Positions 52,301 to 57,428 of a stretch of DNA of 59,762 nucleotides are shown here, piece after piece. The translations under genes were made by a program, and so were the position numbers. The notes below the pieces were generated by a model. It was given only the letters and a program-made list of their open reading frames with translations. It had not been told where the DNA came from and ran no database searches. How positions within the stretch are numbered: the first letter of the stretch is position 1; the number at the start of each line of letters is the position of its first letter. Source of the DNA: a virus (taxonomy: Duplodnaviria > Caudoviricetes); IMG/VR virus record IMGVR_UViG_3300033148_002141, positions 1-59,762 of that record; one strand, 5' to 3'.

Positions 52301-53365
52301 CTAGCTAATGCTGCGCAGGCAAGGGAAGAACGCCGGCGTCTCGAATCGCATGTTGCAGTACGTCCGCAACACGATCATGTCCGTCAGCGTCGTTATGTCC
52401 TCGTCAGTCTTCTTGCCAACCACCTGCCCGAGCATGTTGCGGAATTCGATGTGGTCCTTCGACAGACCGTAGGCAACATTCGGGGTGCAGTAGTGATCCG
52501 CAATCAACTCACTGCCGTTGTGACTGAGACCTCGGAACCCGAGCTTTAATAGCTCCGGAATCTGAGAGATTTCGATTCGCTCCTTGTCGTGCAAGGACAG
52601 CCGGCATAGCCGCAGCATTTCGGGCGTCATAACCCACACGTCCGGAACGATCCCGTGCAGCGATTCGACGTGCGTTTCCGCCCAATCCATTGCTTCACGC
52701 CACGTATACTGCCAGGTCTTCGTGGTGGCAGACCATCCCGAATTGGTGTAATCGGCCACGATGGGCGAATTGAAGAAATACTCCAAGGAGCCAGTCCCGT
52801 TGGGCCATGTGCCGTCAAACTTGCCGGCCCCGTAATAATTCAGGACCATGCTCAGGCCGGCATACGTTCCGGCTGGTACTCCCGCGACCCCAGATGCCGC
52901 GCTGATGTCGGAGTACATCGTCTCCAACCCATCCATGTGGTCTTCCTCGGTCGAATCGCCATCCTTGAATATCTCGGAGCAGAGATGCTTGTTGAAATCG
53001 CGCGATAGCGCATCGAGCGCCGCCTTGACAAGATTGAACAAGGCCAGCTTGTTGTCTTGCTGAACGAGTTGTTCAAATTCGCTAATCGATTCGCCCTCGC
53101 GCCAATGGTGCCACTTCACGCTGGCTTCGCGCCATCGGTTACGTCTCGGCGGTGAATAGCTGTCCATGTCGTCGGCGTATTCAGGAGTCGCTTCTTTGTA
53201 CTCCACACGCCAATTGACAGAGGGGCCGCCCTGGTTATAGGTGATTGCACCCCAGGAATCGAGAAGCCCCATTACCCGCTTGTGGCGGTCGCCGGGTTTG
53301 GTCAGCTTCTTGATCTCCTTGTCGATCGTACTGACACTTACCCGTGCACTAGATGAGACAGGCAT
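52301..53365 (-). CDS. major capsid protein
   Basis: 354 aa after the scaffold; GG..V.W.V.Y, IFKDG...HMDGL, YAGL, PD..VMT motifs. Confidence 0.78.
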   Translation of the reverse strand: MPVSSSARVSVSTIDKEIKKLTKPGDRHKRVMGLLDSWGAITYNQGGPSVNWRVEYKEATPEYADDMDSYSPPRRNRWREASVKWHHWREGESISEFEQLVQQDNKLALFNLVKAALDALSRDFNKHLCSEIFKDGDSTEEDHMDGLETMYSDISAASGVAGVPAGTYAGLSMVLNYYGAGKFDGTWPNGTGSLEYFFNSPIVADYTNSGWSATTKTWQYTWREAMDWAETHVESLHGIVPDVWVMTPEMLRLCRLSLHDKERIEISQIPELLKLGFRGLSHNGSELIADHYCTPNVAYGLSKDHIEFRNMLGQVVGKKTDEDITTLTDMIVLRTYCNMRFETPAFFPCLRSIS

Positions 53366-53573
53366 ATGACTCTCCACAAAGTGAACTTATCCGATTTGCC
53401 AAGCGAAGGGTTTATGGGCACGCTGGCATGGTGCGTTGTGGAGAAGGGCCGCGAGAAGGGTGTGGGCGTAATGCGGGAACTAGGGCGGGGTCTTCCCCGA
53501 AGGAAGAGTTGGCCGCCCCGCGTTCCCGCGCACCAGCCGCCCCCTTCTCCTTTAGCGACTGGTGTGTATCCAA
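53366..53573 (-). promoter_or_regulatory. structured 5' leader of the major capsid gene with alternative SD-pairing
   Basis: Hairpin 53564-53531, branched UUCG hairpin 53529-53473, anti-SD 53448-53436 complementary to both the SD region and the hairpin loop. Confidence 0.6.
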
Positions 53574-54551
53574 TCAGAGCATGCCGCTATCACGCATACA
53601 TGCCTGTAGGAAATCAAAGTCCTCGTCTCCAGCCGAATCCGGTGCCGGCGACACTGCCGGTCTGTGCCGAGCCGCCGGACTCGCCTTGCGCGTCGGCTGC
53701 CGTTGCGCTTCCAATCGGGCGGCACGCTGTTCGGCCAGGACGCGGAATACTCCGAGATTGCTCATATGTGGTTCGGCCGCCTTCAGTCTACGGGCAGCCT
53801 GAATGAACTCCAAGCCTTCCTTGGTAAGCTGTCCTTGCGCTCCCGGCGGCGGCGGTTGTTTGTCCACGTACAGCCATTCTGCGTTTTCCTGCTCGAATTG
53901 GTTCAGCGCTGCAATCTCCTGTTGCTGGGCCGCCTGCGATTGAAGCCATTGTTGCGTCTGTTCGGCGATTGTTTGTTCTCGCTGCTTCAGTAGCGGACCC
54001 AAGACCTGCTCCGGATCGGTTGCCAACAAGTATGCCGTCTTGGCAACCTTCGTGGATAGCTCTTGTGCCATCCGCATTTGGTCGCTCGGAACCTCGGACT
54101 TGTCCGACCGGATTTGGCTTTGCAGCAGTTGAAACTCTTCCCAGGTAGGCGCCTTGGTGCCCTCCGAAGTGCTCGCCTGCTGAGGCTGCTGCTTGCTTTG
54201 CAGGTACTCCATGACTTCCTGCATCCGTTCCGGAGGAATCAACTTCCCCCGCTGGGCGTCCTCATCACGCTGGCGTATTGCCGTGCGCAATTCCCGAACG
54301 GATCGCAAGAATTCCGCGTCATTTGTGAATCGTGTACTCGCGTTGTCGCCGTAAACCTCGTCGTACCATTTCGTCAACCGAAGTGGATCATCGTCATCGG
54401 CGGTCGATTGTTCTACACCGTCGTCCATGTCCGGAGTGTCCGCAACGGCATCATGCGTCGGCTCTTGATCCGGCTCGTCCGTCACCTGATCTCCTTGGAC
54501 ATTCGGCTGATCCTGGTCATCCACAGCATCGCTGGGCGGCTCGCTGGGCAT
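53574..54551 (-). CDS. capsid scaffolding protein
   Basis: Acidic disordered N-terminus, Gln-rich coiled coil, directly upstream of the MCP. Confidence 0.7.
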   Translation of the reverse strand: MPSEPPSDAVDDQDQPNVQGDQVTDEPDQEPTHDAVADTPDMDDGVEQSTADDDDPLRLTKWYDEVYGDNASTRFTNDAEFLRSVRELRTAIRQRDEDAQRGKLIPPERMQEVMEYLQSKQQPQQASTSEGTKAPTWEEFQLLQSQIRSDKSEVPSDQMRMAQELSTKVAKTAYLLATDPEQVLGPLLKQREQTIAEQTQQWLQSQAAQQQEIAALNQFEQENAEWLYVDKQPPPPGAQGQLTKEGLEFIQAARRLKAAEPHMSNLGVFRVLAEQRAARLEAQRQPTRKASPAARHRPAVSPAPDSAGDEDFDFLQACMRDSGML

Positions 54552-54701
54552 AATAGCGTCCCCAAGTTGAAAGCGGAGAAGGGCTTTCAATCTACGCAAC
54601 ACGACCTTGAGAAGGGGCGTCAATGACGGCAAGTTGGAGAAGGAGGGATGCCATCACTGTGACAAATTATAGCGATATGAGTTCCACCTGGACAAGCACG
54701 T

Positions 54702-55367
54702 CTATGCCAATTTCCACTTCTTTTGGAGGGTTTTCCGATTTTTTTCCCAGTACGGACGGTCAATTCCGGTGGTTTGGCTACGCTTATGGCGTATTGGTAG
54801 GGGTACCTCCCGGAGGGTTCCGCCCGATTCAACCACGCGGATTCCTAGATCGACATCTTCGCAGAGTTGCGGGACAAAAACGGGGTCGAACAGCCAGGGC
54901 CAGCGTCGTAAGAGGCCATATCGCCCCGCCACACACCAACCTTCCAGGTAGCGGTATTTGCCCACAGGAGAATCGTAGCCGAATCCATCCGGCCCGCAAT
55001 ACTTCAGTGCTGGACCGGCCAGCGCATTCTCTGTCAAAGCCTCCATCAATGGCTCGATCCACGGTCCGCAGAACTCCAAGTCATCATTCAGCACCACAAC
55101 CGCGTCATCATCATGGGCCAGCATCACCCTCCAAGCGGCATTGCACGCGCGCACAAACCCCACCCGTTCGTGGTATCGGAGCAATAGACACTCATTGCCA
55201 TATTCGGCCAAATACGCAGCCCACGTCAGCGATTCCCTGGCGCCCGCTTCGTCGTCCGTATTGCAGACCACGTAAAGCCGACACGTCGGTGTATGGCAGA
55301 CAAAGGATTCGCAGAATATCTGTAGAAGCCGAGCGTGACCGCAGGTCGGAATGATGATGTGATTCAT
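54702..55367 (-). CDS. glycosyltransferase family 2
   Basis: IIIPT, GFVRACN, VVLNDD, EDVDL, IRH. Confidence 0.85.
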   Translation of the reverse strand: MNHIIIPTCGHARLLQIFCESFVCHTPTCRLYVVCNTDDEAGARESLTWAAYLAEYGNECLLLRYHERVGFVRACNAAWRVMLAHDDDAVVVLNDDLEFCGPWIEPLMEALTENALAGPALKYCGPDGFGYDSPVGKYRYLEGWCVAGRYGLLRRWPWLFDPVFVPQLCEDVDLGIRVVESGGTLREVPLPIRHKRSQTTGIDRPYWEKNRKTLQKKWKLA

Positions 55368-55371
55368 AGAT

Positions 55372-56400
55372 TCAGAGAAAGTTCTTGTGCGGTTTTGGTT
55401 CACACAAACACTGGATTTCCCTGTTGATACCGTCGCAGCGACAGAACGGCACACATTCTCGCATGTCAATCGAGTTCACGACCTGCCGCTTGCGTTCCCC
55501 CTCCCAGATGGCCTTGAATGATTCCGTCCGGAGATTCCCCAGGTAATACTTCTCCACGCCGCGGAAGTAGCAGCAGACAGACAGGTTGCCGTCCGCCTGA
55601 ATGGTTCCCACGAATGACGCGCCGTGACACTTCTTGTACGGCCGGCGCGGCTCGCCGAATCGGCGGTACTTGTGTTCCGACGCCAGCACTTGAAAGCCTT
55701 GTCTGGCGTATTGCTTGCAGACCGGAAACACGTCTGCAATCGGGGTCTGATCCCAATTGAACGGCCGGAATTGAATGTAGTCCGGCCGTTCTTTGTCGGA
55801 GAACTCTTCGTCGAACAATCGCACGCACCGCAACATGCCAGCTTTGGTGTCCTGTCCCACAAGATAGCCCACCCCCACGGTGCATTGCTTGTCGCAATCG
55901 TGTGCTACCGCCACCAGCTTCCCGATGTTCCAGAGCACGCGATTCCATCCCCGTTCGTCGCAGCCGTGAGTTTGCCTGTATGTCGCTGCATCGTAGGCAT
56001 CCACACTTACCCGAATCCATTCGCAGGCCATCACCAGTCGCAGGCTGGCAACCGTGTGCAATAGACTGCCGTTGGTAATCAGCCCAACAGACAACCCACG
56101 CTCGTGTGCATACTTAATCGCTTCCAGAGTATCGGGATTGCATAAGGGCTCGCCGCCGCCGGTGAAAATCAGGCCCCTCACGCCGTATTCGGCCATCTGC
56201 CCGATCCAGTCCTGTGCTTCGACCAGCGACAGTTCGCCCCCAGCGCTCTTTCCGCCGCTGCACTGCGGGCAATGATGATTGCAGATGTTCGTCATGTCGA
56301 ACTCCATCGTCACCGGGGGGGCGATTTCGCCGCGCAAATACGCATCTACCCGGTCACGGTGGTGTGTCAACAACTTCGAGGACGAGAAGATTTCAGCCAT
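55372..56400 (-). CDS. radical SAM protein with SPASM/twitch domain
   Basis: CNHHCPQC, FTGGGEP, LITNG, RVSVD, C-terminal C...DGNLSVCC...LGNL...C..FCR. Confidence 0.92.
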   Translation of the reverse strand: MAEIFSSSKLLTHHRDRVDAYLRGEIAPPVTMEFDMTNICNHHCPQCSGGKSAGGELSLVEAQDWIGQMAEYGVRGLIFTGGGEPLCNPDTLEAIKYAHERGLSVGLITNGSLLHTVASLRLVMACEWIRVSVDAYDAATYRQTHGCDERGWNRVLWNIGKLVAVAHDCDKQCTVGVGYLVGQDTKAGMLRCVRLFDEEFSDKERPDYIQFRPFNWDQTPIADVFPVCKQYARQGFQVLASEHKYRRFGEPRRPYKKCHGASFVGTIQADGNLSVCCYFRGVEKYYLGNLRTESFKAIWEGERKRQVVNSIDMRECVPFCRCDGINREIQCLCEPKPHKNFL

Positions 56401-56436
56401 CGCACCATTCCCACGGTCTTGAAATAGACGCATCAT

Positions 56437-57141
56437 TTATGCCGTCGCAATCGTGCCCCATTCCACCAGCGGAGCCAGATATTCCGGCTCGCAGTGTGTC
56501 GAATACGCCGGAATGGATGACCCGATCGTCCGCCCCCGACGCCTGAGTTCACGGAACGCCTCATAACTGTGCGGCCATGTACCTTGGCTCTGCCGCTGCC
56601 ATACGTCACGGTCTGCGCGCAGCGTGTCCGCGTTTACGGCGAAGGTCGCCACCGTCGAATTCGTCCACTTCCAATGACACCACTCGCCCACAAACACCTT
56701 CGTCTCTTCCCCGCCGCCGCGCACTTCGGGATTCGGGCCGTCATTGCGATACTTGTCCGGATGATCGTATAGAGTCACGTAATCGAATCGCCGCAACCCA
56801 TCCGCCAGCACCGCCGGCGCGCCGGATCGGTGAAGGAAATCGTCTTCCAGCAGATACACGTCTCCTTGCAGCTTGCAGGCATAATCAAGCGCCTTGCGAA
56901 ACGCCCGCGCATTATGCCGCTCGTTGATGCGCATTATCATCCCGCGGTATCCCGTTTCTCTAATGCGCTGCACATACTCATCGGTCACACCGTCGCAGAT
57001 CAGCATCCATTCCGGTCCACCGTATTCCGGAGAATACTGGCCGAATACACTCAGCGCATTCCGCAAACACCCCAGATAGCTGAACCATTCAGGCCGAGGC
57101 TTTTTGCTCTGCGTCATAGATGTGCGGTAAATGATGTGCAT
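56437..57141 (-). CDS. GT-A fold glycosyltransferase
   Basis: VYLLEDDFLH, YVTLYDHPDKY, STHCE. Confidence 0.75.
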   Translation of the reverse strand: MHIIYRTSMTQSKKPRPEWFSYLGCLRNALSVFGQYSPEYGGPEWMLICDGVTDEYVQRIRETGYRGMIMRINERHNARAFRKALDYACKLQGDVYLLEDDFLHRSGAPAVLADGLRRFDYVTLYDHPDKYRNDGPNPEVRGGGEETKVFVGEWCHWKWTNSTVATFAVNADTLRADRDVWQRQSQGTWPHSYEAFRELRRRGRTIGSSIPAYSTHCEPEYLAPLVEWGTIATA

Positions 57142-57173
57142 GTACCGTCCTTCCACTGCCGCATCGCTCTTAT

Positions 57174-57428
57174 TCACGACAACCCCCTGTCTTTCAGCAT
57201 TTTGGTAATTTGCGACTTCAGAATCCCCTCGGGCCATTCGCCACCAAAGTTCAATTCGTTCGCGCCGCCTCTCAATTGCAGCACGACCGCATCGTATATC
57301 TTGGCGGCATATTCCGGATCACGATACACGCCAAAGCTGTACAGCCGGCCCGCGTAACGCACCCTCACCTGCCATCCGTCAGGCATACCGGAATACCCAG
57401 ACACACCGATGTATCCACTGGCTGCCAT
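57174..57428 (-). CDS. stand-alone AP2-domain DNA-binding protein
   Basis: SGYIGVS...WQVRV......FGVY.DPEYAAKIYD......G....LNF. Confidence 0.8.
   Translation of the reverse strand: MAASGYIGVSGYSGMPDGWQVRVRYAGRLYSFGVYRDPEYAAKIYDAVVLQLRGGANELNFGGEWPEGILKSQITKMLKDRGLS

Follow-up and report, generated by a model that had tools for sequence, protein, structure and literature searches.

A conserved RNA leader with a candidate Shine-Dalgarno decoy and repeated anti-Shine-Dalgarno motifs ahead of the major capsid gene in an uncultured phage

The untranslated spacer that precedes the major capsid gene in this virus is a real, conserved RNA leader. This conclusion follows from an overall build that is conserved in relatives and from the co-variation of a short element near the 5' end, termed A, with repeats located farther downstream. 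The leader most likely controls the amount of capsid protein made. The reading favored here, with a probability of about 0.5, is that the spacer serves as a cis-acting structured mRNA leader controlling translation initiation on the capsid gene, in which the Shine-Dalgarno (SD) sequence is sequestered and an SD mimic competes with it. How tailed phages control the scaffold-to-capsid ratio and its timing is understood mainly from a few model phages. Against this background, a testable RNA element absent from Rfam recurs in an uncultured-phage clade at the scaffold-capsid junction. The element comprises three separable parts: a candidate ribosome-binding-site decoy, a hairpin that covaries, and anti-SD motifs present in several copies. 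Co-evolution of these copies with the decoy is seen in two leaders.

Genomic setting and predicted folding of the leader

The window denotes the whole stretch of DNA analyzed, a 59,762-bp record of an uncultured virus. The relevant genes of its capsid region are encoded on the minus strand, in the order glycosyltransferase and radical-SAM genes, a 325-aa gene, the 208-nt spacer, the capsid gene, and the large terminase gene (Table 1). The gene following the spacer had originally been named as the major capsid gene, and its PHROG match supports that assignment. Its start codon is backed by an N-terminus kept in five homologues with 45-49% identity, and the family counts 659 representatives at E <= 0.001 in a profile search. 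For the 325-aa product, Pfam and PHROG searches returned no matches, and weak tblastn matches link it to the ORF that directly precedes the capsid gene in each of 21 related loci. From its position, its composition, and this weak homology, the gene may encode the scaffold.

Table 1. Features of the capsid region in window coordinates
Feature	Position	Strand	Remarks
Large terminase gene	49613-47850	minus	farther downstream of the capsid gene
Major capsid protein gene, 354 aa	52301..53365	minus	ATG 53365-53363; phrog_9953, E 2e-12
Capsid-gene leader, untranslated, 208 nt	53366..53573	minus	exact spacer between upstream TGA and capsid ATG
Element C, TTGTGGAGAG	53370..53379	minus	contains SD GGAGAG, 53375-53370
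Third repeat, CCCTTCGC	53403..53410	minus	weaker, degenerate
CGCACCA	53429..53435	minus	copy of H1 5' arm; can pair with H1 3' arm
Repeat B, CCCTTCTCCACAA	53436..53448	minus	composite anti-SD
Repeat B', CCCTTCTC	53453..53460	minus	pairs with A in the predicted ground state
Central hairpin	53473..53529	minus	predicted fold; three segments, 5' bulge CCAAC
C(UUCG)G tetraloop	53497-53502	minus	apex of the central hairpin
16-nt block	53524..53539	minus	identical in window, L002, and L003 (capsid ~45% identical)
H1 3' arm, GCGGCTGGTG	53531..53540	minus	alternative partner CGCACCA, 53429-53435
Element A, GGAGAAGGG	53542..53550	minus	Shine-Dalgarno-like, in H1 loop; UAAA immediately 5'
H1 5' arm, CACCAGTCGC	53555..53564	minus	10 bp with 53531-53540
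Scaffold-like gene, 325 aa, Q/A/D/E-rich	53574..54551	minus	stop TGA 53576-53574; from ORF list
Scaffold-like gene's leader	54552..54665	minus	three more repeat copies
Scaffold-leader repeat copies	54616-54609, 54583-54576, 54643-54636	minus	CCTTCTCC at 54643-54636
Promoter match TTGTCC-18-TATAAT	54666..54695	minus	upstream of both genes; putative; sigma-70-like, a consensus match only, 10/12 positions

The coordinates first proposed for the leader elements were all confirmed on the minus strand. Pairing between A and B involves nine positions and that between A and B' eight, all of them perfect. Repeat B is composite, its 5' part being complementary to A and its 3' part to C, with which the repeat forms 10 pairs (one G-U). 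The H1 stem likewise contains 10 pairs, including one G-U. Among 3000 dinucleotide shuffles, 7 contained, in 208 nt, an 8-mer in two copies along with its reverse complement. The count of CCCTTCTC in the window is six, against 1.87 +/- 1.15 expected, a number reached in none of 100 shuffles. On the minus strand of the window, the repeat motif is restricted to the leaders of the capsid and scaffold-like genes. Downstream copies of the H1 5' arm, of the CGCACCA type, are also found in the related loci L002, L003, and L184.

Folded as a 231-nt construct, the leader has an MFE of -88.4 kcal/mol (z -2.84), a stability equaled by 1 of 200 shuffles. The corresponding fold combines A:B' with B:C and thereby places the SD in a predicted helix with B, the SD core showing P(unpaired) <= 0.001. 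At nested equilibrium, 7.9 of the 8 A:B' pairs and 8.8-9.3 of the 10 B:C pairs are expected. Two proposals of the original prediction, sequestration of the SD by B and compatibility of A:B' with this OFF state, are thus reproduced by the model. The proposed H1 hairpin fared less uniformly: its arms do form 10 pairs, but the hairpin is absent at nested equilibrium (0.0 of 10 pairs expected). The middle hairpin had been described as branched; the prediction is instead one unbranched hairpin. Holding the 5' part at the scaffold stop single-stranded, as a mimic of a ribosome footprint, left both A:B' and B:C unaltered.

Other states were evaluated against the closed one. Forcing H1 gives -85.3 kcal/mol (3.1 above the MFE), and the best nested fold with a free SD reaches -80.8 kcal/mol. 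When H1 is formed with A and B reserved, the energy is -81.6 kcal/mol, to which an A:B duplex would add -15.7 to -18.6 kcal/mol, a figure that excludes the pseudoknot and loop-strain penalties. The proposed A:B pseudoknot with a free SD is therefore energetically within reach in the window. The same idea does not extend to relatives with three or four equivalent anti-SD copies, where one A capturing one copy cannot free the SD. With only a few kcal/mol separating the alternatives, two leader states of similar energy and a two-state switch between them are plausible on these models. MFE folds of the growing chain pass from H1 to A:B', then to A:B, and finally to the closed form with A:B' and B:C; at length 53430, A is paired with B.

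Conservation of the leader among relatives

Relatives were collected with a 12-row capsid alignment, which yielded 80 viral-contig loci, or 82 with L002 and L003. A start codon and an upstream stop could be assigned in 77 of the 82. By this heuristic, the spacer measures at least 130 nt in 21 loci and from -1 to 62 nt in 53 more distant ones. Spacers of L003, L184, and L190 were underestimated by the heuristic and are long by eye. After removal of identical copies, 18 distinct long leaders remain, including that of the window; the 17 others span 130-240 nt and precede capsid proteins about 27-49% identical to the window's. Only two independent lineages are close to the window. Two metagenomic loci, L002 and L003 (capsid ~45% identical), have spacers of ~204 and ~215 nt that carry the parts in the same order as the window.

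Several further searches were unproductive within their scope. A viral-contig scan centered on L216 returned mainly short-spacer relatives and no new long leader. A capsid-protein search of phage GenBank records gave no matches, as did one of genome contigs for relatives, and viral contigs searched with a single capsid protein and then with a 7-row alignment likewise yielded none. At the DNA level, a 15-mer of the invariant block hit 119 viral-contig stretches, consistent with chance and lacking the capsid protein by tblastn. A gapped DNA pattern gave no match in viral contigs and 61 in genome contigs, none of which encode the capsid protein by tblastn. The DNA-motif loci were dropped because none encodes this protein. 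As to sequencing runs, no RNA run was listed for the stretch, and the one DNA run, with a small share of it, contributed a single contig piece that covers 53031-53215 within the capsid gene and no part of the leader.

The long leaders share a recognizable build. Most begin with a 5' hairpin whose loop consists of an A/U-rich run followed by GGAG-like letters, and they continue with a long central hairpin, two to seven CCUCC-type repeats, and a strong SD. Hairpins equivalent to H1 are present in 10 relatives according to per-sequence folds, with differing stems. These stems are unrelated between lineages; L201 and L202 carry the same loop on wholly different stems. A MAFFT alignment of the H1 hairpins was structurally inconsistent, and support for H1 comes from the per-sequence folds. 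Departures from the common build occur as well. In L194, L195, and L198, GGAG-like and CCUCC-like strands directly form the base of the central hairpin, and L185 has six or seven CCUCCAC repeats only, without H1 or a central hairpin. The leader of L188 has a tRNA-like look, in which ARAGORN finds no tRNA. A CUCC core is retained in every lineage.

The window's central hairpin resembles that of L200. For the clade as a whole, a covariance model (R1) was built from seven sequences. Applied to whole loci, it mixed true and spurious matches, and it was rerun on shortened leader loci. Of 18 such short sources, R1 recognized 15 (E <= 1), each time in the position and on the strand anticipated; the window, L002, and L185 were missed. 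In the resulting alignment of 15 relatives, 84.4% of cells are paired, compared with 58.9 +/- 2.4 in shuffles, and both sides change in 14 of 15 pairs, counts that are inflated in favor of structure by the fitting of the alignment to the model. The covariation score is 0.582 versus 0.181 (0 of 500 shuffles), with slid controls at 0.04-0.14. The consensus in relatives reads GG-AYAC-stem-loop-C-CC, with an invariant asymmetric internal loop and covarying stems.

A broader model (R2) scored the window at 6.2 bits on the correct strand, compared with 6.9 bits on the wrong one, with nothing at E <= 1. It recovered L003, the closest relative with DNA, at 29.7 bits (E 0.0024), and left the central hairpin of L002 undetected. 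The window's hairpin occupies the same place as the clade motif, in the scaffold-capsid spacer, with the SD-like element on its 5' side and the CCUCC-type repeats on its 3' side. Given the R2 result, it is homologous to the clade hairpin by position only.

Co-variation between A and the repeats is the second line of evidence. With A elements picked by eye before testing, 20,000 permutations across 10 lineages showed that A matches its own downstream region better than non-cognate ones, both by energy (p 0.0028) and by longest Watson-Crick run (p 0.002). Lineage differences are matched on the two sides: the window has GGAGAAGGG with CCCUUCUCC, and L002 and L003 have CUGGAGG(G) with CCUCCAG or CCCUCC. 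Between L002 and L003, changes in A:B1 go via G-U pairs. The outcome that would have refuted the original prediction, a lack of conserved complementarities in relatives, was thus not observed, with the architecture found in 17 other distinct leaders and A co-varying with the repeats.

The corresponding signal for the SD is weaker than that for A. Across 15 lineages, the SD also prefers its own downstream region over non-cognate ones (p 0.016 and 0.013). Counted over the family, SD-to-leader pairing does not surpass that of dinucleotide shuffles, with 89 sites versus 82.0 +/- 5.4. In the window, the best such duplex (-14.5 kcal/mol) is equaled by 34 of 200 shuffles. The pairing stands out only in L197 and L202 (1 of 200 each) and in L003 (10 of 200), and L201 is without any anti-SD for its SD (-7.1 kcal/mol). 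The shuffle result weakens the claim of family-wide SD sequestration, and this is a real weakness.

Candidate mechanism and competing explanations

In the proposed closed state, the SD within C would be locked with the anti-SD repeat B in a 10-bp helix, and a second helix, A:B', would close the domain around the long central hairpin. Element A would act as a decoy ribosome-binding site (UAAAGGAG...) without a conserved start codon, competing with the true SD for B. Such competition can occur because A is complementary to the SD's own repeats. On nascent transcripts, B would be taken by A and the SD left open, with closure following later, once C has been made. The fold order of the growing chain makes a self-contained folding programme the most likely use of the leader. 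A factor that binds the conserved hairpin could also keep the arrangement open. These pairings would form in vivo and limit translation, and the leader may set the capsid:scaffold ratio. It counts against the closed-SD reading that so tight a closure would be unexpected for the protein most abundant in the virion.

The leader had also been called riboswitch-like, a description that is not supported: there is no sign of a small-molecule aptamer, the only strongly conserved module is one unbranched hairpin, and no riboswitch class in Rfam 15 accounts for it. Neither a trigger nor a ligand pocket was identified for the leader. As in riboswitch and RNA-thermometer platforms, three mutually exclusive complementary segments (SD, anti-SD, and anti-anti-SD) would set access to the SD; unlike in them, no aptamer of several helices was matched in the leader, and no dependence on a ligand or on temperature is evident. 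In hok/sok-type mRNAs, competing tac, ucb, dcb, and fbi pairings operate together with 3' processing and an antisense RNA. The leader is similar in that several alternative long-range pairings within one mRNA would decide SD exposure, whereas 3' processing and an antisense RNA are not evident in it.

The nearest known mechanism is that of the leader of the MS2 maturation gene. As described in PMC4615214, an upstream complementary sequence pairs with the SD there, and a metastable hairpin acts as a kinetic trap that delays closure. Both leaders, the present one by prediction, have a 5' hairpin followed by intervening hairpins, a long-distance helix from an upstream pyrimidine stretch to the SD, and a closed form as the equilibrium fold. 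In MS2, an early alternative structure occupies the anti-SD and leaves the SD open on nascent chains only; the growing-chain MFE folds of the present leader run in the same order. The differences from MS2 are that the present leader is a spacer between two genes of a DNA phage rather than the 5' end of an RNA genome, that its competitor would be an SD mimic displayed by the loop of a hairpin, and that its anti-SD is repeated two to seven times and also occurs in the neighboring gene's leader; no sequence or Rfam relationship is present. By analogy, the capsid leader possibly works kinetically as in MS2. If so, the folding-kinetics and SD-competition logic of RNA phages would extend to the late operons of DNA phages, and the leader would offer a compact natural part for translation tuning.

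Database and literature searches did not identify the element. With Rfam 15, the best hit in window positions 52800-54200 scored 20.8 bits against a gathering threshold of 35, on the wrong strand, and the best hits in 16 leader loci scored 23.3 against 137 and 20.4 against 44. A viral-metagenome survey from 2023 reports five candidate structured RNAs that as a rule precede members of one major capsid protein family, labeled PHA00201 (PMC10690425), and the present leader may be among them. The literature search found no description of the capsid-leader element, with the supplementary motif lists of PMC10690425 lying outside the comparison.

Other explanations of the same features have to be weighed against translational control by SD competition. 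The central hairpin could be a putative protein operator that binds free scaffold or capsid protein, or a host CsrA-like protein, and thereby sets capsid translation. A CsrA-like site would consist of the GGA-bearing loop and the SD, GGA being common to the H1 loop and the SD, and the A/B/C pairings would be an expression platform or secondary. Scaffold synthesis in P22 is autoregulated, the relatives' hairpin with its invariant GG-AYAC...C-CC internal loop and covarying stems has the typical pattern of a protein site, and the 16-nt block stays unchanged even where the sequences it pairs with differ. This explanation is nonetheless unlikely, since the AYAC loop is missing from the window's hairpin, which the family model does not recognize, a search of neighboring proteins showed no RNA-binding domain, and the co-variation of A with the repeats is left unexplained. 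That co-variation, together with the two to seven anti-SD repeats, is neither needed nor explained by a role in mRNA processing and stability either, which we consider slightly less likely again. Here, the spacer would be cut, and the hairpins plus a ribosome at the start-less A would protect the 5' end of the capsid mRNA, resulting in more capsid than scaffold protein. Element A does look like a ribosome-binding site of the A/U-rich-plus-GGAG kind, and stable hairpins lie on the 5' side of the capsid cistron. By eye, a usable start codon after A is absent in L201, L202, L216, and L190 and present in the window, L002, L003, L184, L262, and L203. PMC2358910 provides precedents in the STAB-SD or polypurine 5' stabilizers of Bacillus thuringiensis cryIIIA and mycobacterial katG, one stabilizer of this type acting in an intergenic region after processing. 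The likeness to those precedents is an untranslated SD-like sequence in a two-gene spacer that does not start a protein; the difference is that the SD-like element here is complementary to repeated partners and is paired in the predicted ground state, and hence not free for a ribosome.

Composition and DNA-level function are the subject of the remaining alternatives. Loading (rut) sites of Rho are C-rich, G-poor untranslated tracts of roughly 80 nt, and the tract after the window's central hairpin (93 nt, 40% C, 16% G) agrees with that description. As a putative loading site, it would be hidden or exposed by pairing with A and C, which would set read-through into the capsid gene. In 14 of 18 leaders, C outnumbers G by a factor of 1.5 or more, with overall means of 34% C and 18% G versus 28% and 30% in capsid genes; L185 keeps C-rich repeats only, with no H1 or central hairpin; and an SD pairing that composition explains fits selection on composition. 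A Rho attenuator remains improbable, given that the leaders of L194, L195, L198, and L188 are not C-rich, that it would be surprising to reduce transcription of the late gene in greatest demand, and that the match to A, being specific to each lineage, is not accounted for by composition alone. Co-variation of all copies would also result from a shift in protein specificity if the repeats and the inverted copy A were DNA sites for a late-gene regulator, with RNA complementarity as a by-product. Direct copies are indeed clustered in two intergenic regions with one inverted copy, at spacings of 12, 30, and 33 bp that are near helical multiples. A marginally lower likelihood still is assigned to this possibility: the CUCC core, the complement of the SD, is kept in all lineages, B extends into the complement of the SD flank, the L002/L003 changes retain pairing through G-U, which is meaningless in DNA, and the repeats lie downstream of the sole promoter-like match and beside a hairpin with RNA-type covariation. 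Least credible is a translated leader, in which a small ORF matters and ribosomes melt the structure. Candidates are a GTG ORF of 17-18 codons after A, whose GTG lies 6-8 nt past the SD-like run and inside the invariant block in the window, L002, and L003, and an ORF of 53-58 codons whose start codon is adjacent to, or overlaps, the stop of the scaffold-like gene in the same three loci (TGATTG; ATGA in relatives). All three frames are open across the region, and ORF openness is for this reason uninformative. The invariant block falls in different frames in the window and L002, the missing starts after A noted above apply here too, and the modeled ribosome footprint at the scaffold stop does not alter the predicted fold.

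Repeats in the scaffold-gene leader

The three repeat copies in the leader of the scaffold-like gene raise the question of a connection between the two head genes. Two of the three are placed in hairpin loops by the window's predicted fold, and loops of 8-10 nt are predicted around scaffold-leader repeats in the window, L197, and L184. One explanation would make loop A a hub between both head genes that kisses the repeats of either leader, thereby coupling or balancing scaffold and capsid translation. From its place between the two genes on one transcript, A would then be partitioned between the leaders, either in cis over ~1 kb or between molecules. Such a hub is doubtful, at about the same level as a protein operator; if true, it would place a long-range RNA-RNA network, as in RNA viruses, inside a DNA phage operon.

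In a complete relative (G001), the motif CCCTCCGC occurs in nine copies versus two for the reversed control, and the extra sites fall in mixed coding, intergenic, and true-SD contexts with nothing clear emerging. Across seven lineages, A matches the repeats in the scaffold-gene leader of its own phage (22 and 8 of 5040 permutations, p about 0.002-0.004).

Distribution and variant forms of the long capsid leader

In distant capsid relatives (L236–L263, metagenomic loci of related phages with a homologous capsid gene, and others), the scaffold stop overlaps the capsid start or lies within ~30 nt of it, leaving spacers of -1 to 29, so the long leader appears to be a clade-specific insertion.

Related loci carry variant leaders. 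In L185–L187, ~140 nt ahead of the capsid gene's start, the leader displays 6 or 7 CCUCCAC repeats. Its composition is 48% C and 13% G, and it lacks both the 5' hairpin and the central hairpin. It appears to be a reduced form of the element. The L188/L189 leader includes a tRNA T-arm-like stretch, GGGTTCGACTCCCGAAC, inside a cloverleaf-like fold ~150–230 nt upstream of the capsid start. ARAGORN makes no tRNA call there.

Motif copies outside the capsid leader

The leader of the scaffold-like gene holds three copies of the anti-SD motif CCCTTCTC(C), two of which fall in predicted hairpin loops. A sigma-70-like sequence, TTGTCC-18-TATAAT, lies upstream of the three copies; it is a putative promoter, matched to the consensus only.

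The L184 lineage has its own version of the motif, CCCTCCGC. It occurs nine times in G001 (a complete relative of L184, 70.7 kb), versus two occurrences for the reversed control. The capsid leader accounts for 3 of the 9 copies; the others occupy varied contexts, including an intergenic one that adjoins a tRNA-like 3' end.

Features of the window and of the related locus L002
Feature	Position	Strand	Detail
Upstream gene group	window 54702-57237	minus	three genes
Leader of scaffold-like gene with the sigma-70-like match	window 54552-54695	minus	CCCTTCTC(C) copies
Predicted hairpin loop with motif copy, scaffold-gene leader		minus	17-nt loop
Predicted hairpin loop with motif copy, scaffold-gene leader		minus	8-nt loop CCUUCUCC, closing stem 8 bp
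Open frame across capsid leader	window 53412-53573; L002 140-316	minus (window)	53-58 codons

Open frame, capsid variant, and gene surroundings

An open frame begins exactly at the scaffold stop and spans most of the capsid leader; the junction of stop and start reads TGATTG in the window and ATGA in L002 and L003. Its register relative to the invariant block (16 nt identical in these three sequences) differs across lineages.

The homologous capsid protein P0001, encoded on a different 6.3-kb contig, is identical to that of the window save for a 29-residue internal deletion close to the C-terminus. Directly upstream of the head genes, the window encodes a family-2 glycosyltransferase, a radical-SAM protein, and another protein of 266 aa, which are unusual surroundings for a scaffold-capsid pair.
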